Part shown: piece by piece, positions 38,439-64,000 of the stretch | How positions within the stretch are numbered: the stretch's first letter is position 1 | Layout of the letters: each line of letters starts with the position of its first letter | Program-made: the position numbers and the translations under genes | The notes under the pieces: generated by a model | What the model was told of the DNA's origin: nothing | Seen by the model: only the letters and a program-made list of their open reading frames with translations | Database searches by the model: none | Origin: Promethearchaeota archaeon | Lineage (GTDB): Archaea; Asgardarchaeota; Lokiarchaeia; Sigyniarchaeales; SOKP01 | Direction: 5' to 3' | DNA length: 64,000 bases | NCBI GenBank assembly: GCA_019058365.1 | Contig: JAHPZE010000013.1 | Location: forward strand, 1 to 64,000

Positions 38439-38655
38439 ATCTTTCTTTTAAATCGCTAATTAACTTATCTAAATTTTCCCCTGAGAGAGCATTTGTTAAA
38501 TAAAATTGACCATCAATAAGATTTAATTTTTTCTTTAAATATGCAATTTCTGTCTCTTTAGCTAAATCGATTTTATTAAAGATAATAATAATTTCAATAT
38601 GTCTTTCTTTTGAAAAAATATCTTTAATTTCATTAAATAATTCAATTTTATTATT
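38422..38655 (-). pseudogene. 3' fragment of a TRAFAC GTPase (Nog1/Obg-like), 5' part missing
   Basis: Hand translation IELFNEIKDIF...IIIIFNKIDL...TNALSGENLDKL (G4 and G5 motifs); no start codon; stop overlaps the mfnF start. Confidence 0.8.
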
Positions 38656-43098: not shown

Positions 43099-43410
43099 CC
43101 CAATAGGTAGATACTAAAAAGCTACGCTTTTTCCAATAGGGAAATTCTTCTACTTTCCCAAATTCATAATATCTCCAAACCTTTTTAAATATTTGGAGTA
43201 AATTATCTACATGAAAAGGTATAAATAAGAAAGGCACTTATTCGAATAAATTTATAACTAAAACTTTATATTACTATAAAGAATAAATAAATTGCAGTTT
43301 AAACATGAATTACATTACAGAATGAAGTTTAATTTGATAAACTGAATAGGAAAATTTAAGAAAGTATATAGAAAAAGAAGGAAAAAACTAATGGGAATGA
43401 TTTATACTTT

Positions 43411-44050
43411 CGGTTCAACCCCACGTATGCGGGAGTAATTCATAAATCCAACTATCCATATTAAATTGACTCGATTCATCCCCGTGTGCAAGGTGGTAAT
43501 AAAAACATAATTATTAATAATTTTTCATCTTTCCGATTCATCCCCATGTGTATGGGGTAAATTGCCTAATTCTGCTTCAGACATCGTATTCCTCCGATTC
43601 ATCCCCATGTGTATGGGGTAAATAAATAGATGATGGTTCACATTTTCTTGAATGGCGATTCATCCCCACGTGCAGGGGTAAAATGTATATATTTTTTTAA
43701 TATTTCTTTAATTTTTCGATTCATCCCCACGTGCAGGGGTAAAATAAATTCTATTTATGAACAAATGGTTATAATTCCGATTCATCCCCACGTGCAGGGG
43801 TAAAATAGATATTTGAATGTATAAACTGTGGGGCGCGACGATTCATCCCCACGTGCAGGGGTAAAATTCCTTCTACGTTTTTTGTCATGATTATTCACCC
43901 GATTCATCCCCACGTGCAGGGGTAAAATGAGGCGATATTAGAAAAGATCTTCAAGTATATCGATTCATCCCCACGTGCAGGGGTAAAATTAATTTTGCTT
44001 GCCCTAGCTTCGCGTTTTCCACGATTCATCCCCACGTGCAGGGGTAAAAT
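43411..44050 (-). CRISPR. CRISPR array: 11 repeats of 29 nt, 10 spacers of about 32 nt, type I-E-like repeat, no cas genes in window
   Basis: CGATTCATCCCCACGTGCAGGGGTAAAAT identical at 43656, 43717, 43778, 43839, 43900, 43961, 44022; variants at 43411, 43472, 43534, 43595; 61-nt period. Confidence 0.97.
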
Positions 44051-44330
44051 ATTTCTTTTTTTAACCGAAATCGAAATCTCGCTAAATTCCTTGACGATAG
44101 AATTTCTTAGTATTGTGTGATGGTTACACCGCTTCTACTATTATTCTTAAAATATGAACTTTTTCCTTCATCCCTTTTGGTCGGTGAGTAGTCCGACATT
44201 ATCCAAGTTTTTCTTAATTTCCTCTTGCGTTATTTTTTTAATTTAGATTTATATTATTTATTAAATAATGATAATTATATATAAATATATTCAATAAATT
44301 AAAAAAGTTTTATCATTTTTTTTGAATTTC
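44051..44330 (-). promoter_or_regulatory. Putative CRISPR leader
   Basis: Non-coding region beside the non-degenerate end of the array; TATA-like TTTATATA near 44285-44278. Confidence 0.6.
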
Positions 44331-46057: not shown

Positions 46058-46351
46058 TCATATTTTACAATAAATTCTGGACATTGCTGAATCTTTAGGA
46101 TTATATCCATACCTAATTTTTTGAAAAATTCCATCTAAAACCTTTAGATTTGAAATCTCAGTTACACTAAACAATTTCCACCCCTTAGATATGTTAGAAC
46201 TACTTCCACCACTGATTTGAAAAGCCCGTAATAATTCTTTTCCTTTAGTTGATACTCCATAACAATATGGTTCAACTTTTCGAGAATGTCTATTATACAT
46301 AAAAGTTAAAATCCTTTTTGATTCGATTGCTGAGCATATTTTTATATTCAC
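46058..46351 (-). CDS. Stand-alone WYL-domain protein
   Basis: AIE.KRIL.F.Y....RKVEPY..G.....LLRAFQ......GWKLF....I. Confidence 0.8.
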   Translation of the reverse strand: MNIKICSAIESKRILTFMYNRHSRKVEPYCYGVSTKGKELLRAFQISGGSSSNISKGWKLFSVTEISNLKVLDGIFQKIRYGYNPKDSAMSRIYCKI

Positions 46352-46513: not shown

Positions 46514-48490
46514 ATGAAAATAAGTGAGATTAATGTTAAGAACTTTAGGGGGATAAAGAACCTCACAATAAGACTAAGTAATTTTACTATTTTAATAGGA
46601 AAGAATGGTGTTGGTAAATCTTCTATATTACATGCTCTCAATTTTTTTAAACAGCAAAAATATGATTTAAACATTGAAGATTATTATAATAAAGATCTAA
46701 CAAACCAAATTAAAGTAAGTATAACCTTTTTTAATTTAAGTGAGGCAGAAAAAGAAGAATTTCAGCCATATATTCAAGAAGATAAACTAAGAGTCATTAA
46801 AATAGCAAAAGGCGACATTAACACTGATAATCCAAAATTCTCTCAAAAGTATCATGGAGTAAAAAAAATGCATAGAAGATTCACCGAAATTAGAGATATA
46901 TCTGATAGTAAGCCTCAACAAAAGAATTTATACCATAAACTGATTACTCAAGAAAAATATAATTCATTATCAAGAGTCTCAAGGGCAGATCAAATAGAAG
47001 ATCAACTTTCATCATGGGAAGAAGCACACACAGATGAATTAGAATTAATCATGGATAACGGTCAATTCTTTGGTTGGCCAGGTGTAGGTACAGGAAAATT
47101 AGGCAAATATATGGATTTCTTCTTTGTCCCAGCAGTGCACGAATATAGTGAAGAAGAAAAAGCAGAAGGGTCGACTTACTTGAATGAATTAATAGATTTA
47201 ACCATTAGAAGAACCTACACCGATACAACTGAATTAAATGATTTTATAGATGATGTTAAGTCTCAATATCAACAACATATTGATAATGAAACTAAACCAA
47301 AGACAAGTGCATTAAGCCAAGAATTAAGTGAAAGAATCCATCATTTTGCTCCTGAATGTGAGGTCTTTATAAGACATCAATCCGGAGAGGTCAAATTTTC
47401 TCCAACAAAATACGAAACTGAATTAAAAGAATTTGGTTTTCAAGGTCCAATATCGTTTTTAGGACATGGAGTTCAAAGATCATTCTTTTTTACTCTTTTG
47501 CAATATATCGGAGAACAGAGATTTTTATTAAAATATTCAGAAGATTCTGGAGAGAGTGTCAACGGATCTGAAATTACTGATGTTAAAAATGATTTAATTC
47601 TTTTAATAATAGAAGAACCCGAGCTGTATCAACATCCGAACAGGATAAAACTTATAAAAAAATTGTTTCAGAGTTTAACAGAGCCAGATAGGGATTTAGA
47701 TTTCCAATTTCAAATAATATGTAGTAGTCATTCTCCTTATCTTATTGATATGTTGAGTGTCGAGGATGTTCGAATATTGCGAAAGGTAAAAGAAAATGAT
47801 GAATATAAAGTATTCGTAAAAGAAGTAGATCTTGATGAAATTGCTCAAAAAATAAAAGAGTTTTATAAAATTCCAGATACAAAAAAATATGATAAATTAA
47901 CATTATTAAGTCGATTGATTTCTATTATGACAATTGAAATTTCAGAAGGTTTTTTTTCGGATAAGGTTGTTCTAGTGGAAGGATTAGAAGATAAAGCTGT
48001 TTTATTGGCAATTAACCATCAAATAAATCAACCTAGTTTTGAAGAACATGGAATCTCAATTATTCCTGTATTAGGAAAAACAAATTTAGATCGACCTGCT
48101 TTAATCTTTAAAGAATTAGAAATCCCCACATTTATTATTTTTGATACTGATAACGATAAATCTGGGGAAGAATTAACAAAACACGAAAAGATTAACACTG
48201 CTCTCAGGAAAATTATGGAAGACACAAATATAACAGATGCCTTTGAGCAAAAAATTGAGAAAACTTGGGCATGTTTGACTCCAAATCTAACTTCATTTTT
48301 AAAAGAAGAGTTAGATAAGGTTTATTATAATCAAGAAATGAATAAATTAAGAGAATTATATGAATTTCCCAAAATAAAAGATTGCCAGAAAAATGTTACT
48401 ATTATGAAAGAATTTATTAAAATTTCTTATGAAGCTGGTAAGAGAATTCCTTTTTTTGAACAAATTATACAAAATATTCATGAATTATAG
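46514..48490 (+). CDS. OLD-family ATP-dependent nuclease (ABC ATPase plus TOPRIM)
   Basis: GKNGVGKS, GHGVQR, IEEPELYQHP, SHSP; VEGLED and FDTD TOPRIM motifs. Confidence 0.92.
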   Translation: MKISEINVKNFRGIKNLTIRLSNFTILIGKNGVGKSSILHALNFFKQQKYDLNIEDYYNKDLTNQIKVSITFFNLSEAEKEEFQPYIQEDKLRVIKIAKGDINTDNPKFSQKYHGVKKMHRRFTEIRDISDSKPQQKNLYHKLITQEKYNSLSRVSRADQIEDQLSSWEEAHTDELELIMDNGQFFGWPGVGTGKLGKYMDFFFVPAVHEYSEEEKAEGSTYLNELIDLTIRRTYTDTTELNDFIDDVKSQYQQHIDNETKPKTSALSQELSERIHHFAPECEVFIRHQSGEVKFSPTKYETELKEFGFQGPISFLGHGVQRSFFFTLLQYIGEQRFLLKYSEDSGESVNGSEITDVKNDLILLIIEEPELYQHPNRIKLIKKLFQSLTEPDRDLDFQFQIICSSHSPYLIDMLSVEDVRILRKVKENDEYKVFVKEVDLDEIAQKIKEFYKIPDTKKYDKLTLLSRLISIMTIEISEGFFSDKVVLVEGLEDKAVLLAINHQINQPSFEEHGISIIPVLGKTNLDRPALIFKELEIPTFIIFDTDNDKSGEELTKHEKINTALRKIMEDTNITDAFEQKIEKTWACLTPNLTSFLKEELDKVYYNQEMNKLRELYEFPKIKDCQKNVTIMKEFIKISYEAGKRIPFFEQIIQNIHEL

Positions 48491-48853: not shown

Positions 48854-49651
48854 CTAATAAAAGGAATTTATATACGTCTGCTTCTTTCTGCTGAATTCTT
48901 CAACTTCAATGATCTTGTTAATTAGAAAATCTACCGCATTAACCAAGTGAGTATCATCAATATACTTATTCTCAAAAGTGATAAAATTTTGTGTATTATT
49001 ATTTATTCGCAATTCTATACCCAGCTCCTCAAATGGTACTTTTAAATGAGTCCAATTCCCTCTTGATTGCTCTTTAGCAATGTCTAAATATTTTTTAGTT
49101 TCGGTAATTTTTTTTGGATTCTTGATAATAACTTTATTATCACGATCCCAACAAGAGATCGCAGTAAAATCCTTTATACCTAAAGCATTAACAAGAGCAT
49201 TTAACTGATCCCTTTTATATTGAAATAAAATGGGTTGATATCTAAAAATAAAGTGATATTTCTCTTTTAGTTTGGCAAGAAGATCATCGCTTAATTTATT
49301 TGAAATTTTAGCTCTTGTATAAAAACATAATATTCTTTTTCTGGGATTTAAAACTATTTTTATTAAAATTGGATATTGCTTTGTTTCACTTAAATTAGGC
49401 GTTTCAGTATATTTAAAGTAAGATAATTCAGTCTTAATAGTGGGTATATACTTTACATCGATTTCAAAATAATCAGATATATAATAATTTTCATTTACGG
49501 GTTCAAATATTTTCTTATACAATCCTGCTTGAAGAATATTGGAATTATTGTCGAAACTAGCTGAATAATTATTATCCTGTAGTATCAGTTGCCTAATTAT
49601 ATCTACTTCATCCTTTATCGCAATATCAAAATAGATTCTTAACGATGGCAT
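48854..49651 (-). CDS. Hypothetical alpha/beta protein in an operon with the AAA+ gene
   Basis: Starts 3 nt after the ATPase stop codon. Confidence 0.7.
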   Translation of the reverse strand: MPSLRIYFDIAIKDEVDIIRQLILQDNNYSASFDNNSNILQAGLYKKIFEPVNENYYISDYFEIDVKYIPTIKTELSYFKYTETPNLSETKQYPILIKIVLNPRKRILCFYTRAKISNKLSDDLLAKLKEKYHFIFRYQPILFQYKRDQLNALVNALGIKDFTAISCWDRDNKVIIKNPKKITETKKYLDIAKEQSRGNWTHLKVPFEELGIELRINNNTQNFITFENKYIDDTHLVNAVDFLINKIIEVEEFSRKKQTYINSFY

Positions 49652-49654
49652 ATA

Positions 49655-50779
49655 TTATCTCTTTTCCTTAAATATAAATTCCTTTTGTAAAATATCTTCA
49701 TAAAAACTTAAAAATAATTCATTCATTTGATAACGCGATGGATTTCCATATTTTATCTTTTTAAACACATATTTCTTGGTTAAATTTTCTAAATATTTCC
49801 ACGCAATAGTTCTATCATAGTCCAAGTCGTCTTTTAAGTCTGGCGTGGTAATATAAATTCTATTTTCTAATTTCAAGTAATAATCAATTATTTCTTGTTC
49901 TTTGGCTGTGATTTTTTGTTTTTTTACGTTTAAATATTTTGTTATAATATTTTCTATAAGTTGCTGTGGGATTGTTTTTAAATTCATGATTCGTGCCTGC
50001 TGGTGAATCTCTTTAAAAAAAAGAAAGCATAAATTTAAATTTCCTTGAAAAGATTTCGCAATTTTCGGTAATAGCTCATTAATTATTTTATCATAATAAT
50101 GTTTTGATTCTTCAGTCTGGATTAAAAACTCATCCGTCCGTCTTTTAAAGATCTCGATTATATCATTACGGGAGAAATTGTTGAAGTATATTTCTCTATT
50201 AACAAGTATATCGTTCTCTAAAGGAAAGTCTCTTGTATGCCAAACTGAAAAAGTTAATTTTGTGTTTTCCTTGTAATCTTTAATTCTTTTCAAAAAAAGA
50301 TATTTATTTTTTCCTGCACATGAGATAATCCGGACATCAAGTTCTTGATTATCTAAACTATCTACTTCTTTTTGAGACATTGATTCGTTAGTCTTGTAAT
50401 TGAAAGAAAACTCTAAATTGTAAAACTCAAATGTAATTTCTGGAAAAGATTCAATTATATAATTTGTAATTATTTTAAGTGTAGTATGTTTCCCAGAACC
50501 TTTAGATCCGATAATGGCAATGTGAATATTATAAGGAAGTTTTTTTGCTTTTCCAAAATATCCAGAGATAACCTTAACTTCTGATTCACGGTTCACAAAT
50601 AATTTAATTAGATGAGGTGTAAATGACTTTTCAGGATTGAAACCATCAAGAGGATTTTCAGAATAAAAAAACCTTCGATACCAGAAAGGGGAATCTTCTA
50701 CAATGGACTCTTTGTGTTTAATACCACCCTTTACAGATTTAACTACTAAATCTTTAAGATGATTGTTTTCTTTTGACAT
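49655..50779 (-). CDS. Cdc6/ORC-like AAA+ protein with C-terminal winged helix
   Basis: LFVNRESE, GSKGSGKHT Walker A, FQGNL sensor region, DYDRTIAWKYLENL HTH; Walker B degenerate. Confidence 0.7.
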   Translation of the reverse strand: MSKENNHLKDLVVKSVKGGIKHKESIVEDSPFWYRRFFYSENPLDGFNPEKSFTPHLIKLFVNRESEVKVISGYFGKAKKLPYNIHIAIIGSKGSGKHTTLKIITNYIIESFPEITFEFYNLEFSFNYKTNESMSQKEVDSLDNQELDVRIISCAGKNKYLFLKRIKDYKENTKLTFSVWHTRDFPLENDILVNREIYFNNFSRNDIIEIFKRRTDEFLIQTEESKHYYDKIINELLPKIAKSFQGNLNLCFLFFKEIHQQARIMNLKTIPQQLIENIITKYLNVKKQKITAKEQEIIDYYLKLENRIYITTPDLKDDLDYDRTIAWKYLENLTKKYVFKKIKYGNPSRYQMNELFLSFYEDILQKEFIFKEKR

Positions 50780-50942: not shown

Positions 50943-53216
50943 ATGAATTCGAATTTATTTATATCAAATGAAGTAGTTTTTAATATGATAAAATTACCGT
51001 ATTACACTATAGATCCAAATATTAGCCCAGATGATTATTATAGAATAGTAAAGGGTGCTGAATGGCAATTATTCAACAAACGCTTTTATCCTGCTACGTT
51101 TGGAAATAAAATACTATTTATTGGTAATAAAATAGAACCTCCTAAGAATTTAACAGTGGATAAATATAGATTTTCTTTATCAGAAGACAAAATTACATTA
51201 AATTCGATGGATCATAATTATATTCTTTCAAACATAATTCGTAATGTATTAAGACGACAAGCCTTTTCAAAAGGATACACTGGACCTGAAGGACAAAAAT
51301 TTTATAAAAGAAATCCATATAAAACAAAATTTTTTGCATTTCATGACGCTTTTTATTTAGAAACAGAAGTATTTCCCGATGGTAATATCGGTGTTTGGTT
51401 AGATCCTTCTACTAAATGGAAATGGCATTTGAAAGATTTAATAAATAGTTTAACCCCAGAAGAACAAGAGGATATCTATAAACAACTTGTTGGAAAAAAA
51501 ATTAAATATCCTAGTGTAAAAAGAAACCAACTTTATAAAGGAACTATTACCGAGGTTATTACTAGAACTTATAAAGAATATGAAATCAGTATAAACGGGG
51601 AAAACTATACCATTTTTGATTTTTGGATGAAATCAAGCGAAGATCATAGAAAGTGGTTGGCTAGGAATAAAATCTCACTGAAACCAGAAGGTTTTCCAAT
51701 AGTTATGGTTCAAATTCCAAACTTAAAATTCTCCATTCCTTATCCAGTTGAAGTTCTTGAGCTTGTTATTGACATCACTGATCCTTTAATTCCTTTAGAT
51801 ACATTTGACGAAAAAAAAATTCAGGCTCCCCTTAAAAGAATTAATGAGACATTTAATTTATTTGATCAGATCCTAAATCATGGCTTAGATTTAGGGGATT
51901 TTAAAATTACTTTTTCTCGACAATTATATAATTGGGAAAAGTCTCCTTACGGGACTATAATTTCTTTAGAAGCACCCAAACTTCAATTTGGGAATGATAA
52001 CACTATTGATCCATTAAAACCATGGCAAGATCCAGATATAAAGAGTGGAATGTTTCAATTTGGACCAGTAGATAAAAAAAAAGAAATAAAGGTATCTTAT
52101 ATAGGTCCATCAAGTGAAAAAGATAATTTTATGACATTTAATAAGTACTTGAATCTTCATGCTAAAAAACTGCATTTAGGAACTTTTGAGCTCACGAATA
52201 TTTTTCCTATTGATAGAATTCATCCAGATAGGTATTTGCGTATATGTCAAAGTGTTGGTCAACAAATAGAGAATCAAATATCATTTGTCATTTTACCTAA
52301 ATTTAAAACAACTAAAACCTATTACGCAGCAAAAAGAGGACTTGGAAAAAATTTTATAAAAAGTGCAATGATACAATGGAACACTTTTAAGAAACTTTTA
52401 AGTGCCAGTTCTCAAGGACGACTTTCATTTGAAAACTATAATATTGCTCTAAAAGCATATGGAAGATTTTTAGAAAGTGGAGAGGCGATCTGGCATCTTA
52501 AAGAACCTGCAGGAGGATTAAATGCTGCTACTAATAATTATTTTTTGGGATTTGATGTTTCACGTAATCCCGAAAGTAGAAAAGAAGCAGCTGCATATGC
52601 TGCAGTTTGTGATAATTATGGAAAAGTTCTCTATAAAAGCTCTATTGACTCGCATAGAGGAGAAAATATTATTTCTGAAATATTAAGTGATTGGTTCTTC
52701 GAAATTGCGACTTCTACGTATGATGAAATTGGAAATGAGAAAAAAATAGATTGTATGTACCTTTTTAAAGATGGACCTATTTCCCATCCACAGGTTAAGG
52801 AGTATGAAAAAGGATCACTTTTGGCAAAGGAGCGTTTGATGGAGGAGCATTTAATGACAAATGACTCTGATATTAAGACTATTGCGGTTATTAAGCGAGG
52901 TTTGCATAGATTCTATGGAGATGAAAAATTAGGATATAAGATTAACTATTCAGGATTAATTCGTAGCCCTAAAGAAGCGATTCTAATTACTTCTCGCCCA
53001 AGGTTTGGAACAGCGGCAACTACTCGAATTGAGCTTACTCATCAGATGAATAACAACATAGATATTTCTCAAATTGCTAAAATGTTTAATGATTTACGGT
53101 ATTTGGATTGGAATTCGTTATTTTCTCAACCAAAAACTATTTTACCACTTCATATTGTTCAGAATTTAGCTAAATTAAGTAAAGAAGATGTGATTGTACC
53201 TTATGATCCAAGGTAA
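50943..53216 (+). CDS. ago: Long prokaryotic Argonaute (N-L1-PAZ-L2-MID-PIWI)
   Basis: PAZ-like TIFDFW...PIVMV...PYPVEVL; APKLQFG L2; MID YYAAK...NIALK; PIWI FLGFDVS, RGE, LFKDG, IAVIKR, GTA, LRYLDW...LPLH. Confidence 0.92.
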   Translation: MNSNLFISNEVVFNMIKLPYYTIDPNISPDDYYRIVKGAEWQLFNKRFYPATFGNKILFIGNKIEPPKNLTVDKYRFSLSEDKITLNSMDHNYILSNIIRNVLRRQAFSKGYTGPEGQKFYKRNPYKTKFFAFHDAFYLETEVFPDGNIGVWLDPSTKWKWHLKDLINSLTPEEQEDIYKQLVGKKIKYPSVKRNQLYKGTITEVITRTYKEYEISINGENYTIFDFWMKSSEDHRKWLARNKISLKPEGFPIVMVQIPNLKFSIPYPVEVLELVIDITDPLIPLDTFDEKKIQAPLKRINETFNLFDQILNHGLDLGDFKITFSRQLYNWEKSPYGTIISLEAPKLQFGNDNTIDPLKPWQDPDIKSGMFQFGPVDKKKEIKVSYIGPSSEKDNFMTFNKYLNLHAKKLHLGTFELTNIFPIDRIHPDRYLRICQSVGQQIENQISFVILPKFKTTKTYYAAKRGLGKNFIKSAMIQWNTFKKLLSASSQGRLSFENYNIALKAYGRFLESGEAIWHLKEPAGGLNAATNNYFLGFDVSRNPESRKEAAAYAAVCDNYGKVLYKSSIDSHRGENIISEILSDWFFEIATSTYDEIGNEKKIDCMYLFKDGPISHPQVKEYEKGSLLAKERLMEEHLMTNDSDIKTIAVIKRGLHRFYGDEKLGYKINYSGLIRSPKEAILITSRPRFGTAATTRIELTHQMNNNIDISQIAKMFNDLRYLDWNSLFSQPKTILPLHIVQNLAKLSKEDVIVPYDPR

Positions 53217-53258
53217 AAATTCATATAGATGAATATCAAAAATTATATTATAGCAAAC

Positions 53259-53385
53259 AAGACAAAAATAAAAACTAAATTAAAACGATTGGAAAAGAAG
53301 AAAATTTATTTGAATAATTTGTGATTATAAAGGGAGGATAAATTATGCCAGAATTCTTGATTGAATTTATTAATAATCAAAATGA
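53259..53385 (+). repeat. Direct repeat copy 1 (nurA upstream region, RBS and first codons)
   Basis: 127 bp, 3 mismatches to 57760-57886; ATG 53345 starts MPEFLIEFINN and then diverges. Confidence 0.95.
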
Positions 53386-53515
53386 GAAGATCATTTTTAA
53401 TTTGATATATTTATGCAGGATGATAATTAATCATTTTCATTCTTTAAAGAAAAAATTCTATAATGCAAAAAATTTTAAATTAAAACATTAAGGTTAGAAT
53501 CTTAAGGTGCCATAG

Positions 53516-56500
53516 ATGGGATCAATCCAAGAAGAAAAGAAGAAAAGAAAGAGAAATGAAAAAGAAGAAGAGAAACTCGAGAAGGTAGAGAAGAAATCAA
53601 TGAAGAAAGAAGATATAAAAAAAGAATCCAAAATTATACAAACAGTCATCGATAGAAAGGAAATTGTAGAAGATAGCATTAAAGCAAAAGAAGAAGAAAA
53701 ATCAGAGGGTAAAGAAAAGAAAATATCCCTCACGGAAGATGAAAGACTAATTCTAATGACACTAAATTTCGTGGATAGGCATAAAGGCGGGTTGAGCATA
53801 ACGGGATTTCAGATAAAAGATTTCTTGCAGTTAATCTTTTTAGGTAAAGATGTTGATAAGCTTTACTTTCAGTTAAAAGAAAAGGAATTTATCGTTAGGA
53901 GGAGAGATTCAGAGGATTTCTCTGTTTCATTTGAGGGACGACAAGTAGCGGAAAAGCAAGATGATTTATTAAAACACATTTTTATTGAAATCGGAAGGAA
54001 ATTAGAAGATTTCTTGAGTGAGAGTGGAATATTAAAGAGAGTGCTTTATTTTGCCCAAGAAAATAAATGGAGTTTCAGACAATACCTTCCGAGAATTATA
54101 CTTAGCTTAGATGAATTGGAACAAGTATTAACTATTTTTTTCTTAGACGATTTGTTCTTGGACATTCCAGCTGTTAGTAAAGTGATTAGGAAATTAAGGA
54201 AGGAGCAACAATCCAAAATACAAGAAGTATTGGCAAATTACTGCAAAGATTTAGATTTCCTGAAAACTCTTGCTATATTGAAAATGGACGAGATTAAGGA
54301 TAAATTAGGTGTAGAAACCGTTAGTATAGTCCATTACAAGCCATTTAAAGACATCCTTTCGGAAGTCGTGGAAAAGTCAAAAATAGAAGAAATCTTGGAA
54401 AAATTGCTCCTATTGGGAATCACCGAATCATATAACTTCTTCGGAATCGATACCCTATCGATTCTAATGAGTGAGGAAAATATCTCCAAGCTAAAGAATT
54501 GGATGGCATTTGATGAGGATGCGTTCAAAAGGCAATTAGAAACCAACTGGAACATATTTATAAATGCAAAAAATGCGGTAGAAAACGCAGTGCTCTTTGA
54601 TTTTAAGGGATTAATAAAATCCAAAGCTGTTTTATTTTATAAAAATAATGTCTTGGTCAGAAAGGAAGTGAAAGGTGCTTTTGTAGAAGTGTATGAAAAA
54701 GTTAAGGAGAAATTGAAAAATAAGATTAAAGAAATAGAAAATGTCCTTATATCTCCATTTTATGAGGTTAATAGGGATGAATTAAAACAATTTAGGGGAA
54801 AGATCATAATTGTATTGCACGCAGTTGATTGGTGGACGAAAAAATATTACTTTCCCGTAATTAGAGAAGAAGAATTGGTAAATAATGTGATTCTTCTCAT
54901 TTCTCCAAAAGAAATCGGTTTTCGTTTAGATAAAGCACTGAATTATTCTAATAGTCAAAGAGTATTGGAAATACCAGATAAAAATGTGGAATTTAATGCG
55001 GTGGGCGAAATTGATAATATTGAGTTAGTTAAATCAATTTTAAATGTTTGCGAATGGGTTTTGGAAGAAGAATATTATTCTGTAAAAAGAGCTAAAGAGA
55101 TTATATATGAAAAACAATACCCTCCAATATCTATAGAACAAGCAATAAATCAATTAAAAGAAGGAATGAGAGAGATCGATGGTAAAGTCTTAATAGATGC
55201 ATTATTAATCTCTATAAATAAACCAACTAATTATAGTGGAACTTTTATCTATAGAGATAATGGGCAGTTTACTAAAAATCATTTATGGTATCATTTGGAA
55301 AATATACTTAAACTGAAATATAATTTAAAAGGAGATCATTTCATTAAAATTAAAGAAAGTCTTGAAGAATTAATTGAAGGAAAGGCAAGGATGGATCTAT
55401 TTACTTTAGGATTAGGTTCTAGACCTGGTTCTGACATATATTACTCTAAGGAAAAAAAACTTTTATCCATAATATTTAATAATTATAATGTAAAATCTAT
55501 TATCTTATCTTCAATAGAAAGGTTAGATCAAATATCAATAGAAATTGTTTGGATTTATCTTAAACTTTTTATTAAAATTGAAGTGAATATCGATGTTAAT
55601 AGATTTAAAACTATTTATGAGATTATATTTAATAAAAAAATAGAGAATGATAATGATATTATAAATGCTATTAATAAAACGGGAATCTCTATTGCAGTGA
55701 AAAGAGGTACTCATTTTAGTCATTACAGATTTCCATATATTTTAGATAATGAATTAGATATCGAATTACTCTCTTTTCTAGAAAAACGAATACAAATTAC
55801 TCAACCTAATTATGATACTTTTATTAAATTATATAAAAAGAAGATTATTGAATTAGTTGGTTTGGATTATCTCTTGAATAATGATGGATATTGTAGAAGA
55901 AATAATTTAAGAGAGTTCTTGTGGAAGGTCTCTCTGGAAGCGTGGGATAAATTTGATTCATATGAGGGATTGATATCATCAAAAGAAAGTGAGATAATAG
56001 CTTTAAATCCACTTTTACTAGATGAGTTGAGGGTATTTCTAAGTGTTCGTAAAAGAAAAATAATTGAAAGCCAAGAAAGATTGAAAGAGGTAGTATTATC
56101 ATCGAAAATAATTGATTCGTTAATAGAACTTGACGAAGATCTGGTTATTCTAAAGGGATTTATAACATTACAGAATAAAGAAGATATAACAGTGATAATA
56201 GTCCCTTGGTATCTACCAATGTACGAGAAATATCTTGGAGAGAAGGCATTAATTGTAATAACTGACCAACCCGACTACAAAACTTTTATAGACACCATTA
56301 AAGCTATTAATAAAGAAATAACATTAATATTCTTAAAAGATAACCTATTTTACCTATTTTCTACCTTTAGAAATGTTAATTTTATAAATTCCTTACTATC
56401 AAAACTGGAAGAGCACGGTTTTGCATTAATCTCAAAAGAAATTTTGTCTTTAGAAACTTCGGAAGAATCGAGGGTGAAGGAAGAGTTAATTACACTACAG

Positions 56501-57682
56501 GCAGAAAAAGAAGAAACAGGTGAAATATTCGAAGTGAAAGAATTAGATCTATTTGGAGAATTATTCGATACAGACTTGAAGGGCTTTCCTATTGGGTTGG
56601 GAACGGAAGATCCAGTAGTATTGATACTTTCTAAGACGGAAGACGACAATTACAGTGCCACTCTCCAGATATTATGTAGAGAAATATATAGAGAACTAAT
56701 TAAAGGCTTGCCCCTCCCGAAAAGAATAACAGAAGAAAGAATAGAGGAAGAAACGGATGTGAGTGATAGAATCATATTCGTTGACGATGATAAAGCAAAG
56801 AAACTTGGTTTTGGAAAAATATCACGCAATGAGAATATTAACTGGGTTAATCTTGGCAAGAAGCTACAAGAATTCTATTCTCAATACTTTGGTTTCTATA
56901 TTTTTGAAATTCCGATGGATAAAAAGGAAGAATTTAAAGAAAAACTCATAACTCATACTAAAGATCTTAGACCCAGAATAATCCAAGTAAAGCCCTTATA
57001 TTTAGGAAGAAGAATTATTTTAGATATTACCGAAGAAGGAATTAAGGAGATTTCTGACTTGGTTAAGTTCAAGAAGAAGATATGTAGCCTAATATGGGGA
57101 TTTGTAACACCGAAGGGCGACGATAGATGGGAGCGGGGAGATAACTTCGATAACTTCTTTAGTAGTTGCGAAAGTGAATATAATAAAAGATTAAGAAATA
57201 TGGAGATTGAGAAGATTAATGTTGAGGGTAAAGAAATGAGTGTTCCAATTCTAGTTAATAGAGGTGTAAACGAGAGTGATCTGCATTTTCGAATCAAGGT
57301 CTTTATTGTAAAATACTTGTATGAAACAAAGAAATATTCAAGGGGTTCTGTAAAAACAGAACAAAAAATAGATGGAAAAGAAATTTACCCTGATATCCAA
57401 GCAGGTAAAATCATCTTCGAAGTAGAAACACTGTATAACTCTGAAAGACCATTGAGTAAGCTTGTAGAAAAGGTCAAAGATTATAAGAACGATGGAAAAA
57501 AGCTCATTATCGTGTTAAAAAATGTTGATGTTTTTCTATATTACACACAACTAATAGATTTGGAAGAAGAATTAAGGGATGAGGGTATGGATGTGGAGTT
57601 CAAATCTCTTAATTTAGGGGATAATATAATTTTTCACATAAAAGAAATTGGTAAGTCTTACCATTCTTTCTTTAAAAAATAG
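53516..57682 (+). CDS. 1388-aa protein with C-terminal PD-(D/E)XK nuclease-like domain
   Basis: ESDLH..IK...KTEQ...YPDI......EVET; K/E-rich N-terminus followed by a winged-helix-like segment. Confidence 0.65.
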   Translation: MGSIQEEKKKRKRNEKEEEKLEKVEKKSMKKEDIKKESKIIQTVIDRKEIVEDSIKAKEEEKSEGKEKKISLTEDERLILMTLNFVDRHKGGLSITGFQIKDFLQLIFLGKDVDKLYFQLKEKEFIVRRRDSEDFSVSFEGRQVAEKQDDLLKHIFIEIGRKLEDFLSESGILKRVLYFAQENKWSFRQYLPRIILSLDELEQVLTIFFLDDLFLDIPAVSKVIRKLRKEQQSKIQEVLANYCKDLDFLKTLAILKMDEIKDKLGVETVSIVHYKPFKDILSEVVEKSKIEEILEKLLLLGITESYNFFGIDTLSILMSEENISKLKNWMAFDEDAFKRQLETNWNIFINAKNAVENAVLFDFKGLIKSKAVLFYKNNVLVRKEVKGAFVEVYEKVKEKLKNKIKEIENVLISPFYEVNRDELKQFRGKIIIVLHAVDWWTKKYYFPVIREEELVNNVILLISPKEIGFRLDKALNYSNSQRVLEIPDKNVEFNAVGEIDNIELVKSILNVCEWVLEEEYYSVKRAKEIIYEKQYPPISIEQAINQLKEGMREIDGKVLIDALLISINKPTNYSGTFIYRDNGQFTKNHLWYHLENILKLKYNLKGDHFIKIKESLEELIEGKARMDLFTLGLGSRPGSDIYYSKEKKLLSIIFNNYNVKSIILSSIERLDQISIEIVWIYLKLFIKIEVNIDVNRFKTIYEIIFNKKIENDNDIINAINKTGISIAVKRGTHFSHYRFPYILDNELDIELLSFLEKRIQITQPNYDTFIKLYKKKIIELVGLDYLLNNDGYCRRNNLREFLWKVSLEAWDKFDSYEGLISSKESEIIALNPLLLDELRVFLSVRKRKIIESQERLKEVVLSSKIIDSLIELDEDLVILKGFITLQNKEDITVIIVPWYLPMYEKYLGEKALIVITDQPDYKTFIDTIKAINKEITLIFLKDNLFYLFSTFRNVNFINSLLSKLEEHGFALISKEILSLETSEESRVKEELITLQAEKEETGEIFEVKELDLFGELFDTDLKGFPIGLGTEDPVVLILSKTEDDNYSATLQILCREIYRELIKGLPLPKRITEERIEEETDVSDRIIFVDDDKAKKLGFGKISRNENINWVNLGKKLQEFYSQYFGFYIFEIPMDKKEEFKEKLITHTKDLRPRIIQVKPLYLGRRIILDITEEGIKEISDLVKFKKKICSLIWGFVTPKGDDRWERGDNFDNFFSSCESEYNKRLRNMEIEKINVEGKEMSVPILVNRGVNESDLHFRIKVFIVKYLYETKKYSRGSVKTEQKIDGKEIYPDIQAGKIIFEVETLYNSERPLSKLVEKVKDYKNDGKKLIIVLKNVDVFLYYTQLIDLEEELRDEGMDVEFKSLNLGDNIIFHIKEIGKSYHSFFKK

Positions 57683-57759
57683 TATAAATAGAGCTTTAAA
57701 TATAATTGTAATTGGAATCTATTTCAGATTTTATTAAATTTGAAAATATTAGAGCATTT

Positions 57760-57886
57760 AAGACAAAAATGAAAACTAAATTAAAACAATTGGAAAAGAA
57801 GAAAATTTATTTGAATAATTTGTGATTATAAAGGGAGGATAAATTATGCCAGAATTCTTGATTGAATTTATTAATAATCTAAATGA
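57760..57886 (+). repeat. Direct repeat copy 2, containing the functional nurA start
   Basis: 4501 bp downstream of copy 1; GGGAGG RBS and ATG 57846. Confidence 0.95.
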
Positions 57887-59108
57887 AAAAACCAAGCGAA
57901 TTTTAGAGAATTTTGAAAATAAGGAAATTAATAAGCTATACGAGAAGTTATTTCCTTTTTATTGGATTGATCATGACATAGAAAATCATGATCCCACTCA
58001 AGAGGTAATAGCTATTGATAGTAGTAGGGGGCATTGTCCGACTAATAATGGTGGATTTTTTTTTGTTTCTAGAGCTATGGCTTATGGAAATCAAAAAAAA
58101 TATAAAGAAGTTTATACAGATTTTGACTTTTCAAATGTTAAAACACAATCTGATTATATTGGAAGAGTAATGGAATGGACGGAGCATTCAGTCGCAATAC
58201 AAGCTATTAAAAAGGGATTTACAAAGTATGTTTTAATTGATGGTTCTATTTATGGGAGATTATCTCATTTACCAATGGAGTTGAACTTAGATAACAACAA
58301 GGGTTTTATGATTCAATATTTTGAGACTTACTTAAATCTATTGGATATATGTAAAAAGAAAAAAATACCTCTAATTGGTATTAGTAAAGAAAGTCGAACT
58401 TCCTTTTTCCGGGAGTTTTTAATAAAACAAATATTAAAAAGTAAAATTTCAAACTCCCAATTACTAAATAAATTACTTTCAGAAGCTTTAGATTTTCCAA
58501 AAAATGCAATTAAACTTGCAAAAAGTACAAAAGATGACGATATCATTTTACTTACAGAAGAACTTATTGCCCGAAAACCAGACTCTTTATTGATTTTAAA
58601 TAATGCTCATCACGCAGGATATACAAAACCACTTATATTAGGGGGAAGTGCGAGATGGCGACGGGCTGAAAAGAAAATTAAGGTGGATTCAAAGGGTTAT
58701 ATTGAGTCTAGCTTTCCAATATTATCAGAAGATATTAAATTTTTAAATCAAGCTAAAAAAATTATTACTAAGATGCTGGATTTTCCGAGCATCGTGTCTT
58801 TTCATATTCTACCCATCCTCGCAGATACACCTTTAAGAATAGATATTCCATCATGGTATTTTGGTATAGATAGAAGGCTTTTAGATGTTGGGTGGCCTGA
58901 AGTAGTAAATTTGGACTTAAGTGAAATCCTTAAATTAATCTCAGCAGGTTATTGTGGATTGGGAAATTATAATATTTGGCTTACAGCCGTGGATAATGAA
59001 GTTAGATTATCCAGAAAAGATTTTGAAGAATTATATTTAAAAAAGTTTGAAGAAATTATAGGTAAAAAAGCAACACCAAGAGGTTATAGACGTGTTAGAT
59101 ACCCGTAA
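57846..59108 (+). CDS. nurA: NurA 5'-3' nuclease
   Basis: IAIDSS, LIDGS.Y, GISKES, PLRID, GNY..WL..VD..VRL; overlaps herA. Confidence 0.9.
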   Translation: MPEFLIEFINNLNEKTKRILENFENKEINKLYEKLFPFYWIDHDIENHDPTQEVIAIDSSRGHCPTNNGGFFFVSRAMAYGNQKKYKEVYTDFDFSNVKTQSDYIGRVMEWTEHSVAIQAIKKGFTKYVLIDGSIYGRLSHLPMELNLDNNKGFMIQYFETYLNLLDICKKKKIPLIGISKESRTSFFREFLIKQILKSKISNSQLLNKLLSEALDFPKNAIKLAKSTKDDDIILLTEELIARKPDSLLILNNAHHAGYTKPLILGGSARWRRAEKKIKVDSKGYIESSFPILSEDIKFLNQAKKIITKMLDFPSIVSFHILPILADTPLRIDIPSWYFGIDRRLLDVGWPEVVNLDLSEILKLISAGYCGLGNYNIWLTAVDNEVRLSRKDFEELYLKKFEEIIGKKATPRGYRRVRYP

Positions 59109-60705
59109 AATTGGAATTATAATAGGACAAGTAAAAACATCTGAATTTATTTTTGCAACTAACTATGATGTAAACCGGTTAGAATATGTAGCTATAGAAT
59201 CACAAGAATTAATAGAAACTGAGGAAGGGAACTTAGAAGAAATACCAATTGTAATAATAAGTCAGATATTTGAAGTATGGGCGGATTCAAGAGCGCTTCC
59301 TGAAGGTCTGAAAATTGAAGATGCAGAAAAAATTATGGCTGCAGGATTAGCAGATTCAAAATTTTTTGCTAAAACTCGTATCCTTGGATATTTACATGAA
59401 GAAAATGTCTTTCAGCCTAGAAGAGCGATAAATCCAGGTAATTTTGTACACATAGCTCCTAATGAACTTTTAGAACAATTTTATTCTTACCCAGAAGAAG
59501 AAGGATTGCATATAGGTCATTTAATTACTCGATCTGATGTTCCAGTATATATTACTGTAAATGGATTTAGAAGACACCTCTCTATATTGGCTCAAACAGG
59601 AGGGGGAAAAAGTTATTGTGCTGGGGTGCTCACAGAAGAATTACATAGAAAAGGAGCAACTATCGTGATCATAGACCCACACGCTGATTATGTGTTTTTG
59701 GGTTCAAGAATTGACGGAACAAGAATAGATCGCGTTAATGTTTTTAGAACGCCTCAAAGTACAGGGAGATATTCAGAAGTAGATATAGGAAGGATGATAC
59801 AACAATATGAAGTAAGGTTTTCTGATTTAACAATTGATGAAATTTTTATGATTAGCGGCATTCGTGAGTCATTTACTCGAATTAGAAATGCAGTACAAGA
59901 CGCATTAACTAATTTAAGAGAAAATTCGAGAGCAAATGCTGATAGACCCCTAGTAGGACCAGACGGTTATGATTTGAATGATTTATTACAAGAATTACAA
60001 GATTTAAATACTAATGATTCCAGGAATGCTGTAAGATATATAAGAAGGATTCATAGATTAGGAGTTTTTAGTAATGCTACTACTGATATCTCAAGAATCA
60101 TTCTTCCTCAACAAATTTCCGTAATTGATTTGTCAGGATTATCAGACAATGTAGCAGATTATATAACTAACCGAATTCTTTCTGAAATATATGAACAAAG
60201 GAGAAATGAAACTTACCCTTATCCTGTATTTATATTTATGGAAGAGGCACATAGATTCTTGCCAAATAAAGGAAGAACTTATTCCATTGAAACTGTCAAA
60301 GAAATTTCTGCTGAAGGACGGAAATTTGGAGTTTTTTTAACTTTAATTACGCAAAGACCATATAAAATTGATCAAGACGCTTTAAGCCAGTGTAATAGTC
60401 AAATAATATTACGAATCACAAACTCGGAAGATCAAAATGCAATAAGAACTAGTTCCGAAAAGTTGAGTGAAAGTTTACTTAATGATCTACCCGGCTTAAA
60501 TCCTGGAGAAGCTGTTATTGTTGGTAATTTGACAAGGGCACCAGTAATGGTAAAAATTCGAAGGCGAGTAACAAGAGAGGGTGGCGCGGATATTGATGTT
60601 GTTAGTAGCTTAAGAGCTGCCAGAGAAGTCGTTGAACAAGGAGAAGAAGAACAAGCAGAGCAGGCTCATGAGGAACTAGAAGAATTAAGAGAGATGTTGG
60701 AGTGA
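59092..60705 (+). CDS. herA: HerA helicase/translocase
   Basis: HAS barrel; RHLSILAQTGGGKS, IDPHADY, FMEEAH, EGRKFG, TQRP, SQCN. Confidence 0.94.
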   Translation: MLDTRKIGIIIGQVKTSEFIFATNYDVNRLEYVAIESQELIETEEGNLEEIPIVIISQIFEVWADSRALPEGLKIEDAEKIMAAGLADSKFFAKTRILGYLHEENVFQPRRAINPGNFVHIAPNELLEQFYSYPEEEGLHIGHLITRSDVPVYITVNGFRRHLSILAQTGGGKSYCAGVLTEELHRKGATIVIIDPHADYVFLGSRIDGTRIDRVNVFRTPQSTGRYSEVDIGRMIQQYEVRFSDLTIDEIFMISGIRESFTRIRNAVQDALTNLRENSRANADRPLVGPDGYDLNDLLQELQDLNTNDSRNAVRYIRRIHRLGVFSNATTDISRIILPQQISVIDLSGLSDNVADYITNRILSEIYEQRRNETYPYPVFIFMEEAHRFLPNKGRTYSIETVKEISAEGRKFGVFLTLITQRPYKIDQDALSQCNSQIILRITNSEDQNAIRTSSEKLSESLLNDLPGLNPGEAVIVGNLTRAPVMVKIRRRVTREGGADIDVVSSLRAAREVVEQGEEEQAEQAHEELEELREMLE

Positions 60706-60712
60706 ATAACAT

Positions 60713-61810
60713 ATGAGAATTGCTCATTTAGCTGATACACATTTAGGATATAAACAATATAATCTTGATGAAAGAGAACAAGATATCTATGATGCATTTA
60801 ATCAAGCTATTGATAAAGCAATTGAAGAACGTGCAGATGTAATTATTCATTCAGGAGACCTTTTCGAAAGAAGCCATCCTCCAATAAAAGCATTATTGAC
60901 CTTAAAGGATGCTCTAAAAAAGATTAGGGGCAAAATTAAATTTCTATCTGTATTAGGAGAACATGATATTCCTAAGAGAAAAGCAATAATACCACATAAA
61001 TTGTTTGATATTCACCTTCTTGGAGCAAATTATAAGCTAGAAACGACAAAAATAGATAATGTATTATTTGCTGGAATATCAAATCTTAAAGGTAGATATG
61101 TTGGAACGTTAAAAGAAGAGATAAAAAGATTTGATAAAATTGCTGAAGACTATAAACACTCAGTATTAATTTTACATCAAGCGATAAAAAAATATTTGCC
61201 ATTCGAAGGTGCTTACCAATTAACATTAGATGAGCTCCCAAGAAAAGCTAGTTATTATGCATTAGGTCATATACATGCTAAAAATGAATTAAAGTTTGGA
61301 AATGGGCTATTAGTTTATTCTGGTTCTACAGAGATTATGAGTAAAGATGAGATCTCTTCTTGGAAGAACAAGGGGAAAGGTTTTTATCTTGTTGATTTAG
61401 AAAGTGATGATATCAATTATGAATTTATTCCTCTCGATATTAGACCTCAAGTCTCTATTGAATTAAATGTTGCTAATATCGAAAAAATCCTTGATTCTCT
61501 AATTTTTGATAAAAAACCCTTGTTACATTTAAAAATATTTGGAGAAAAAATAGAAAAAAGTTATGTTCAAGAACAAATAGAGAGAATTGTAAGAGATAAA
61601 GTAATTTTTCATCGTATTCTATTTCGAGAAGCAGGAATAAAGGAGGTTAAAATACCTCAAGATGCAATAAATCTCTTATCAATATTTAAAGAATATTTTG
61701 AAAAAGAAGAAATTGGTGAATTTACTAAAAATCTTTATGATATTTTATCCGAACGTGATATAAATTCTGCGATAAGTCTCGCTAAAAATTTTATGGAGGA
61801 GTATGACTAA
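60713..61810 (+). CDS. mre11: Mre11 nuclease
   Basis: ADTHLG, HSGDLF, GEHD, HQ, ALGHIH, YSGS. Confidence 0.94.
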   Translation: MRIAHLADTHLGYKQYNLDEREQDIYDAFNQAIDKAIEERADVIIHSGDLFERSHPPIKALLTLKDALKKIRGKIKFLSVLGEHDIPKRKAIIPHKLFDIHLLGANYKLETTKIDNVLFAGISNLKGRYVGTLKEEIKRFDKIAEDYKHSVLILHQAIKKYLPFEGAYQLTLDELPRKASYYALGHIHAKNELKFGNGLLVYSGSTEIMSKDEISSWKNKGKGFYLVDLESDDINYEFIPLDIRPQVSIELNVANIEKILDSLIFDKKPLLHLKIFGEKIEKSYVQEQIERIVRDKVIFHRILFREAGIKEVKIPQDAINLLSIFKEYFEKEEIGEFTKNLYDILSERDINSAISLAKNFMEEYD

Positions 61811-64000
61811 AAAGATGATAATTAAATCAATTAAAATGGAAAACTTTATCTCACACCAAAAAACTGAATTCCCTTTCCCTGTGGGGGTATTAGTAATAGT
61901 CGGAGAAAATGGTTCAGGAAAATCTTCTATTATTGATGCTATCTTCTATTCTTTGTGCGGCGTACAAGTTAGGGGTGATAATGTTGATGATTTAATAAGG
62001 GAAGGAACGAAGAAGGCAAAAGTCAATTTGCTATTTGAGCATAATGGTATTGCATATGAAATTGAGAGAGTACGTGAAAAAGATGTCAATCCATATGCTT
62101 TATTGAAAAAGGATGGAAGTATAACAGCAAGAAAGCAAACTCCTGTAAGTGAAGAAATTGCAAGGATTTTAGGCATGGATAAAGAAGCAATAATTAATTC
62201 AGTTTTTATTCGACAGGGAGAAATAACAAAATTAATTGATGGTACGCCTAGTGAAAGAAAAAAAACTATTGCTAAATTAATTGGCATTGAAAAATTAGAG
62301 AAATGTTATGATAAAATGAGAAATGTCATAGATTACTTCGATAATCAATTGAATGATTTTGATATAATTAATACAAAATTACAAGGAGAGCAAGAATCTA
62401 AAACCGAGTTAGATTCAGAAATTGAGGAACTTACAGGAGATATTAATAAAATAAAAAAAGATGTCATAATTGCTGAAGACATTTTTAAAAAAACAGAGGA
62501 TAAAAAGAAACTTTGGGAAAACAAGCGAAAAGAACATCAGGAACTGAAAAGTAAGAAAACAAAGAAAGGGGAACAGATCTCGTCTACTAATGAGAAAGTT
62601 AATAATCTAACTACTCAAGTCAATGATGCTAAAAAAGCTCGGGAAAGAGTTACTGAATTAGAACCTCAAATAAGGAATATTGAAATATTAGAGAAATATA
62701 TAGAAAACTTTAGGAATAAAAAAATTACTACCGAAACTCTTGAACGATTGAATAAAGAATTTGAAAAGGTAAATCAATGGATAACAATTTTAAGTATTAA
62801 TAAAGACAAATTTAAAGAATTTAATGAAATTAGTGAGAGTTTAAGCCAAAAAGAAGATGAAATAGAGAACTTGAGAAAAATTGAAAAGGAGTATATTGAA
62901 CTGAAAAAAGATATTGAAAACACTCAAAAAAAATTAACTGAATACAAGGATGAGATTGAAAATATTAATGAAAAAGCATTGAAAGTTTTACCCAGAGCAG
63001 AGAAAAAAGAAAAAGACAAAAAAATGAAAGAACTAAATAGTAAATTAAAAGAATTAGAAGGAAATATATCAAATATAATAAGTTCTAATGGAGCTATTAA
63101 AGGTAGAATTAAAGAAATTGACAATTATTTATTAAAATTTCAAGATAGCGATGAGTGCCCTGTATGCTCAAGTGAACTATCACCTAACCATAAACAGAAA
63201 GTTATAACGGATTTTAAAAGAGAGAAAAGTGGTAAAACAAAAGAAATCGAAGAGAATAGGGAAAATATCTCCTCTTTAGGAAAGGAGCAAAATCAATTCA
63301 GAGATCAACTTGATAACATAAAAAGTTTAGATTTAGATAAATATAAAGAGTTAAAAGAAAAATTTGAAAATCTGGAAACTCAGTTAAAAGAGTTTGAGAT
63401 AAATAGACAAGAGAAGGGAAGAGCAACAGAAAAATTGAGACTATTGGAAGATCAAAGCAAAATTGAAAAAAAAAGCGTTGAAGAATTAAAACCAAGATAT
63501 AATGATTATATTGCAGCAGAAAAAGCATTGGAAAATGAGAGAGAGATAAAGGAAATACAAAATGAGATCAATGAATTTAATACTAAATTAACTAAGATTA
63601 TGGAAGTTGATTCAAAATTAGCTAATCAATTAAAGAAAATTCCTGAGAAACCTGAAGAAGAACTTAATCAACTTAGAAAATTAAAAGAGGAATATATTGT
63701 TGCTAAAGGTGAAAGTCAGAAATTAGAGAAATTTCAAAAAGATTTAATCAATACAGAAAAAATTTTGAATGATTTTATCTCTGAATCAAAAAAAATTGAT
63801 TCTGAAATTAATTCTTTAGGATATAACGAAGAACTATATGAACAAGTTCTAAAAAAGAACAATGAAGCAAGTAGTACCTTAGAAAAGCTAAAAAATAGTG
63901 TGAATCTAAAAATCATTGAATTAGATAAAAAAAACCAAAAATTAAATGAACTTAAACAAAAAATTAACGATCTACTTAAACAAATGAAATCTTTTGAAAA
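61803..64000 (+). CDS. rad50: Rad50 ATPase, runs off the window end (alternative start 61815)
   Basis: ENFISH, GENGSGKSSIIDAI, FIRQGEI, coiled coil, zinc hook ECPVC near 63153 in the same frame; absent from the ORF track because no stop falls in the window. Confidence 0.93.
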   Translation, partial: MTKKMIIKSIKMENFISHQKTEFPFPVGVLVIVGENGSGKSSIIDAIFYSLCGVQVRGDNVDDLIREGTKKAKVNLLFEHNGIAYEIERVREKDVNPYALLKKDGSITARKQTPVSEEIARILGMDKEAIINSVFIRQGEITKLIDGTPSERKKTIAKLIGIEKLEKCYDKMRNVIDYFDNQLNDFDIINTKLQGEQESKTELDSEIEELTGDINKIKKDVIIAEDIFKKTEDKKKLWENKRKEHQELKSKKTKKGEQISSTNEKVNNLTTQVNDAKKARERVTELEPQIRNIEILEKYIENFRNKKITTETLERLNKEFEKVNQWITILSINKDKFKEFNEISESLSQKEDEIENLRKIEKEYIELKKDIENTQKKLTEYKDEIENINEKALKVLPRAEKKEKDKKMKELNSKLKELEGNISNIISSNGAIKGRIKEIDNYLLKFQDSDECPVCSSELSPNHKQKVITDFKREKSGKTKEIEENRENISSLGKEQNQFRDQLDNIKSLDLDKYKELKEKFENLETQLKEFEINRQEKGRATEKLRLLEDQSKIEKKSVEELKPRYNDYIAAEKALENEREIKEIQNEINEFNTKLTKIMEVDSKLANQLKKIPEKPEEELNQLRKLKEEYIVAKGESQKLEKFQKDLINTEKILNDFISESKKIDSEINSLGYNEELYEQVLKKNNEASSTLEKLKNSVNLKIIELDKKNQKLNELKQKINDLLKQMKSFE

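Follow-up and report, generated by a model that had tools for sequence, protein, structure and literature searches.

The guides of the Argonaute (Ago) CbAgo derive from breaks processed by RecBCD (10.1101/2020.03.01.971358), and in species without RecBCD or AddAB the source of guides for prokaryotic Argonautes (pAgos) is unclear and an open question (PMC12094033). pAgos with co-encoded nucleases or helicases are already known (PMC12094033, PMC6299218), and DdmE passes its targets to a helicase-nuclease (reviewed in PMC13618286). The role of archaeal HerA-NurA is disputed between end resection for repair and destruction of viral DNA; the Thermococcus HerA-NurA destroys both strands, and an antiviral role has been proposed (PMC12977600). 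The Asgard NurA is uncharacterized (PMC13748450), and a nurA-csm6-herA cluster beside CRISPR arrays is already known (PMC13748450, PMC12977600). Here, we analyzed a 64,000-nucleotide stretch of a Promethearchaeota archaeon of the Lokiarchaeia (assembly GCA_019058365.1, contig JAHPZE010000013.1, positions 1 to 64,000; the window), in which a long pAgo gene precedes a nurA-herA-mre11-rad50 resection operon. The genes are intact and accessory, they lie in a defense island, and the linkage of the two partners recurs with unrelated versions of each.

The operon shares its four genes and their motifs with the archaeal herA-nurA-mre11-rad50 operon (PMC13748450, PMC12977600), but it is supernumerary in its host, lies in an island, and is preceded by an Ago. 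As in CbAgo and TtAgo with RecBCD or AddAB, a long pAgo is combined with a machine that processes double-strand-break ends and is the likely guide source (10.1101/2020.03.01.971358). However, those Agos are DEDD slicers that use an unlinked housekeeping complex, whereas here the four-protein machine is extra and co-encoded, and the tetrad is DEDQ. APACE1, a long-A pAgo with the Cas4-family nuclease ACE1, likewise has a co-encoded, repair-related nuclease that assists a long pAgo in hosts without RecBCD or AddAB (PMC12094033). ACE1 is one small nuclease of single-stranded DNA, whereas the present set comprises an end sensor, a helicase, and two nucleases, in interchangeable types; we found no Cas4/PD-(D/E)XK family match in the ten genes around ago. 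The locus may also resemble DdmDE (PMC13618286), in that an Ago without a canonical active site would work together with a processive helicase-nuclease that attacks invading DNA. DdmDE, however, pairs a DdmE-type Ago with the single SF2 helicase-nuclease polypeptide DdmD, which has a dedicated interface to the DdmE insertion domain, whereas here a full-length long Ago with a PAZ domain stands beside HerA, NurA, Mre11, and Rad50, and recruitment is hypothetical. In the Asgard HrAgo1 rnc-ago-helicase operon, an Asgard Ago is also co-encoded with a proposed guide-making machine (10.1101/2023.12.14.571608), but HrAgo1 belongs to a different Ago clade and is RNA guided, and its partners process double-stranded RNA. 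A literature search that had most subscription papers outside its reach returned no description of an Ago coupled to the archaeal four-protein resection machine. The Ago-resection module is real and recurrent and is apparently unpublished.

In the window, ago, a 1,388-residue orphan, nurA, herA, mre11, and rad50 all lie on the plus strand, and the four resection genes overlap or are nearly contiguous (Table 1). The catalytic motifs are present in NurA, HerA, Mre11, and Rad50; the GEHD motif III of Mre11 also occurs in two other Loki type A copies examined. The initial annotation had described a full-length long pAgo co-oriented with nurA-herA-mre11-rad50, and the coordinates, Pfam matches, and intact motifs agree with that description. 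The linkage therefore stands, with the correction that ago and nurA are today 4.6 kb apart, separated by the orphan open reading frame (ORF), which that annotation had omitted.

The orphan is flanked by two copies of a 144-bp repeat that are 94% identical and include about 100 bp from upstream of nurA together with its first codons. The ATG of the left copy lies 128 bp past the ago stop, in line with the roughly 130 bp noted initially, and encodes the first 11 NurA residues before the sequence diverges. Read depth in the probable source run was 177 at the repeat core and 83 to 88 elsewhere, and the region from 45 to 64 kb was evenly covered at about 85-fold. Therefore, the duplication is real, and a collapsed-repeat assembly artifact is ruled out. 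We infer from the left copy that a near-identical nurA start once lay directly after ago, whatever event made the repeat, which supports the earlier view of ago-nurA as the older arrangement. A later 4.5-kb insertion would have displaced nurA from ago yet restored nurA's own upstream sequence, and both halves, ago and the resection operon, may still be expressed. No joint in the read graph cleanly bypassed the cassette; the sole joint, 53093-57781, was discarded because it had a 23-letter side, and unitigs cannot separate an integrated cassette from a one-copy circle. A scan for sigma-70 promoters gave values near background, the consensus being bacterial and irrelevant for archaea.

A search of the host genome for a second, housekeeping resection set found one (type H) amid housekeeping genes on host contig C13 (17890-24295). 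The HerA of this set is 92 to 96% identical to that of several congeners. The island set (type A) is non-orthologous to it, with 21 to 23% identity in NurA and HerA. Type A was found in 5 of 134 genomes of the family, yet almost every genome of certain other Asgard families has it, and the island NurA is 58% identical to a Helarchaeota NurA and 51% identical to that of Archaeoglobus fulgidus. In five congeners, the DNA to the left of window position 38648 is joined directly to contig position about 97640, which marks an empty site. The C13 set, the sparse distribution, and the empty site together rule out that the island set is the sole, vertically inherited housekeeping repair set. The host genome also contains a third, solitary NurA-family gene (C2:16070-17347) and two solitary HerA paralogues (C39:60127-61653 and C21:85446-87122), all in housekeeping contexts.

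The island between these two points measures about 59 kb and contains a CRISPR array, an OLD gene, the ago-resection block, and a BREX system. Its integration site is the 3' end of the NOG1 GTPase gene, 217 bp of which are duplicated in decayed form on the left; the right boundary is the intact gene copy (contig position 97637-97853). No integrase was found among the subset of island ORFs scanned. The flanks are 75 to 96% identical to congeners, which excludes a foreign contig. Comparison with the empty site places the ago-resection block deep inside the island, so the adjacency is not a chance island boundary, the explanation that the initial annotation had set against its own.

The Ago of the window forms a subclade (Shimodaira-Hasegawa-like approximate likelihood ratio test [SH-aLRT] support, 99) with those of L025, L026, G018, and G201. 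In all five intact members, nurA is the next gene or was the next gene before the insertion, so the expectation that close Ago homologues adjoin nurA or herA was borne out in the other four. A type B operon, with a NurA-like gene, herA, and an Mre11-Rad50 fusion, lies 73 bp behind the L025 Ago, the closest at 82% identity, and another lies 94 bp behind the G018 Ago (55%). The gap is 155 bp behind the L026 Ago (56%), where the order is ago-nurA-OLD-WYL-x-herA, and 88 bp behind the G201 Ago (49%), where it is ago-nurA-herA-mre11-rad50-OLD (type C). The five Agos are one clade, and their HerAs split into three deep clades; the three resection sets paired with this subclade are 22 to 26% identical. 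The fused Mre11-Rad50 of type B operons is a single protein of about 1,190 residues (L028:14229-17807, L150, L151, L152). Decayed fragments of the Ago clade occur in G018 (two places), G002, and G219 (L010, L011, L012, L033), and they point to what may be frequent gain and loss.

A family-wide search for Piwi domains recovered further, unrelated Agos, and two of their clades occupy the same slot. A DEDD long Ago precedes a type B operon in G229 and, in G221, a NERD-helicase gene followed by a type C operon. In G217, a short Ago and its probable APAZ partner precede a type A operon whose HerA is sister to that of the window, and a probable Wadjet system (SMC and JetD-like genes) follows rad50. 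At this locus (L092, G217:C21), the short pAgo, the probable nuclease-APAZ partner, the type A operon, and the probable Wadjet form one co-oriented run. Nine family genomes carry an intact Ago; it is linked in six, unlinked in two (G224 and G253), and at a contig edge in one (G241), which makes six of eight assessable. Agos are rare in the family (9 of 135 genomes), and they are concentrated where extra resection sets occur; among genomes with at least two resection sets, an Ago precedes an extra set in five of eight examined, and no Ago was found in five genomes whose sole detected set is of type A or B. These Ago tallies are lower bounds, since G018 escaped the Pfam search and the clade profile failed to detect G221, G229, and G217. 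Because kin are not independent, the useful count is six distinct combinations of Ago clade and set type.

Farther out in the Ago family of the window, the partners differ. They are a UvrD-PD-(D/E)XK protein, Mre11-Rad50 with a divergent AddAB-like pair, UvrD with a divergent Mre11-Rad50, or a divergent Mre11-Rad50; some members lack a partner of this kind. The partnered loci often carry a divergent Csa3-like CARF-HTH gene. The clade member P0009 is followed by a 206-residue Cas4/PD-(D/E)XK nuclease (L052:10929-11549), reminiscent of ACE partners.

The Ago itself has the N-L1-PAZ-L2-MID-PIWI architecture and the length, about 750 residues, of a long pAgo. The AlphaFold model, built from a 48-sequence alignment, is confident (pLDDT 91.8), and its best Foldseek TM scores are to CbAgo (6qzk, 0.74) and CpAgo (0.73); VbAgo is the top sequence-profile match. 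No relative of this Ago was found in a scan of metagenome contigs. The tetrad is D538-E574-D610-Q740, with Q740 aligned to TtAgo D660. The fourth residue of the canonical DEDX tetrad of slicer-active long-A pAgos is D, H, or K (PMC6299218), and therefore slicing by this Ago is probably weak or altered, if it slices at all. Q740 is invariant in the core clade, and this conserved, noncanonical DEDQ tetrad marks an uncharacterized Ago clade. The 5'-phosphate pocket of the MID domain (Y-K-Q-K) is partly changed: Y460 and K464 are kept, while the subclade has A475 in place of the Q and R508 in place of the last K; the Q and K are present in more distant members of the clade. The long-B pAgo-effector class, which acts by abortive infection, lacks the catalytic tetrad and has a toxic effector; the present protein differs in that three of its four catalytic residues do not vary in the clade and no such effector is adjacent. 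A predicted cofold of Ago (residues 180 to 757) with NurA scored 0.00 and was used as evidence neither way.

We suggest that the locus is a mobile Argonaute-resection defense module, in which the machine, like RecBCD, degrades the ends of invader DNA and supplies guides to a weakly slicing or nonslicing Ago; we put the probability of this reading at about 0.55. In this scenario, Mre11-Rad50 would bind free double-stranded DNA ends, either viral or plasmid termini or those cut by the neighboring OLD or restriction-modification nucleases, and HerA-NurA would degrade the DNA from those ends. Short single-stranded fragments would load into Argonaute as guides, as RecBCD and AddAB products do into CbAgo. 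The guided Argonaute, a probable weak slicer or nonslicer in view of Q740, may then bind complementary invader DNA and expose it to further degradation. Since the partner sets can replace one another, the two halves are probably coupled by DNA products and not by a fixed protein interface. The odds are about even that several classes of Argonaute in archaea recruit a dedicated NurA-HerA-Mre11-Rad50 complex to make guides or to destroy targets. If so, this would be the archaeal equivalent of RecBCD-fed DNA interference, hard-wired into a single operon, and the Mre11-Rad50 repair complex would be an immune component that Lokiarchaeia swap like a defense gene. The idea of an Ago defense module with its own resection complex, as first put forward, is partly supported by the recurrent linkage, the extra set, and the position inside the island, and the guide-making or target-degrading role stays conditional. 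The compact, uninterrupted modules of L025, G018, G229, and G201 allow one heterologous experiment on both the guide source and the role of HerA-NurA.

Several observations weigh against a coupled module. Where upstream sequence is available, an Ago precedes just 4 of 10 type A and B operons, and Agos are infrequent among the 45 type C sets. A NERD-UvrD helicase occupies the slot before nurA in G202 and G206. Two near-identical short Agos (G253 and G224) and several clade members (G145, G308, G078, P0009, and P0012) have no resection genes. The linked set of G201 is the only set detected in that genome and sits beside a housekeeping UvrD gene. No ago-nurA linkage was found in the other Asgard families examined, where many contigs are short. 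Ago predicts the operon, and the operon does not predict Ago. This one-way relation would be expected if Ago depends on the machine and not the converse, and a shared hotspot is also compatible with it. The initial description of a five-gene system was therefore right about a linkage that recurs, but it was too rigid, since partners are interchangeable, the slot is shared, most operons lack an Ago, and the copy in the window is interrupted.

The hotspot is the basis of one alternative, in which the extra operon is a stand-alone antiviral or backup repair system and Ago merely shares an insertion hotspot or promoter slot with it, uncoupled. An antiviral role has been put forward for HerA-NurA by itself (PMC12977600), the AAA+/265-residue pair next to ago is found with either partner alone, an Ago is missing from most operons and other genes can hold its slot, and resection operons are highly mobile, as judged from the types that replace each other at the housekeeping locus. 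We nevertheless consider this explanation unlikely, because the same-strand, next-gene order recurs in all six combinations of Ago clade and set type, because the rare Agos cluster in genomes with extra sets, and because the wider Ago clade retains partners that are functionally equivalent and unrelated. A second alternative resembles DdmDE: a nonslicing, guided Ago would hand the invader to HerA-NurA and Mre11-Rad50, or to the UvrD-nuclease in sister loci, with guides coming from elsewhere. The invariant DEDQ tetrad fits such a role, as do the sister loci with a single, DdmD-like helicase-nuclease and the L026 locus, where nurA still adjoins ago though OLD and WYL genes separate it from herA. 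Recruitment is a poor match with one subclade that swaps such dissimilar sets, the 82%-identical window and L025 Agos having different ones, and with three Ago classes that share the slot, since a fixed interface is hard to maintain under such swapping; Agos with an intact DEDD tetrad are linked too. We regard recruitment of this kind as similarly unlikely. It is very unlikely, finally, that a once-functional module has become uncoupled in the present copy because the insertion severed ago from the operon. The cassette does stand between ago and nurA, and its repeat copies have diverged by 6%, but all five ORFs and their motifs are intact, the right repeat restores the nurA upstream sequence, and coupling through DNA products requires no shared transcript.

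The mobility of the resection operons is visible at the housekeeping locus between the signal peptidase and UvrD genes, where we compared the host locus (C13:17890-24295) with L138, L143, L146-L148, and L156. Types H and C nearly exclude each other across the family, in 51 and 45 of 134 genomes with an overlap of 5 (P about 2e-6), and they are only 27% identical in HerA and 21% identical in NurA. A core repair operon is thus replaced wholesale by a non-orthologous one, and resection operons are highly mobile in the family. This swapping of whole operons suggests arms-race-type turnover of a repair machine in close prokaryotic relatives of eukaryotes.

Table 1. Features of the window, in order of position
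Feature	Position	Strand	Evidence or remark
Left end of the island: 3' end of the NOG1 GTPase gene in a degenerate (68%) 217-bp copy	38432..38648	-	
CRISPR array, 11 repeats of 29 nucleotides	43410..44052 (about)	+	
OLD-family ATPase-TOPRIM nuclease	46514..48490	+	Pfam, PADLOC
265-residue orphan, partner of the AAA+ gene wherever flanking DNA could be compared	48854..49651	-	
Winged-helix AAA+ ATPase (Cdc6-like), transcribed divergently from ago	49655..50779	-	Accompanies these Ago cassettes
ago, long prokaryotic Argonaute (N-L1-PAZ-L2-MID-PIWI), 757 residues	50943..53216	+	Pfam Piwi E 1e-8; AlphaFold; Foldseek
Left repeat copy: nurA upstream region, ribosome-binding site, dead nurA start (ATG 53345)	53245..53388	+	
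1,388-residue orphan gene on inserted 4.5-kb cassette	53516..57682	+	ORF, homologue search
Right repeat copy, live nurA start	57746..57889	+	
nurA, type A (Helarchaeota/Archaeoglobus-like) nuclease; D58, E113, D132 intact	57846..59108	+	Pfam, alignment
herA helicase/translocase; Walker A/B and RK motif intact	59092..60705	+	Pfam, motif inspection
mre11; motif III GEHD	60713..61810	+	Pfam, motif inspection
rad50, 900 residues; Walker A, zinc hook CPVC, signature, Walker B, H-loop intact	61803..64000, on to contig position 64505	+	

The 1,388-residue orphan had no matches in Pfam, PADLOC, or NCBIfam. It has seven homologues with 32 to 63% identity, one of them labeled Helarchaeota, and the 63% homologue sits among restriction-modification genes, where neither ago nor nurA lies within 10 kb of it. 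We suggest that it is a candidate stand-alone defense protein. On the other side of ago, the AAA+/winged-helix gene is a possible regulator. The pair that it forms with the 265-residue orphan occurs with long Ago, short Ago, and NERD-helicase cassettes, and its position is that of the Csa3-like CARF-HTH genes at other Ago loci.

The remaining neighbors belong to the island. Domain and repeat searches bore out the OLD nuclease and the CRISPR array of the initial annotation, but its WYL label for 46058-46351 found no Pfam match. The restriction-modification/TA debris that it listed was assessed by eye. OLD genes are also present at five homologous Ago-NurA loci. Outside the window, a complete BREX system (brxA-B-C-pglX-pglZ-brxL, contig position 64764-77822) lies on the same strand as rad50 and begins 258 bp past it. 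No cas gene was identified beside the CRISPR array. The array is faced by a 1,080-residue orphan (39856-43098) with a weak match to the Cdc6 winged helix, and a further CRISPR-repeat-like copy lies near the other end of the island, at contig position about 87020.

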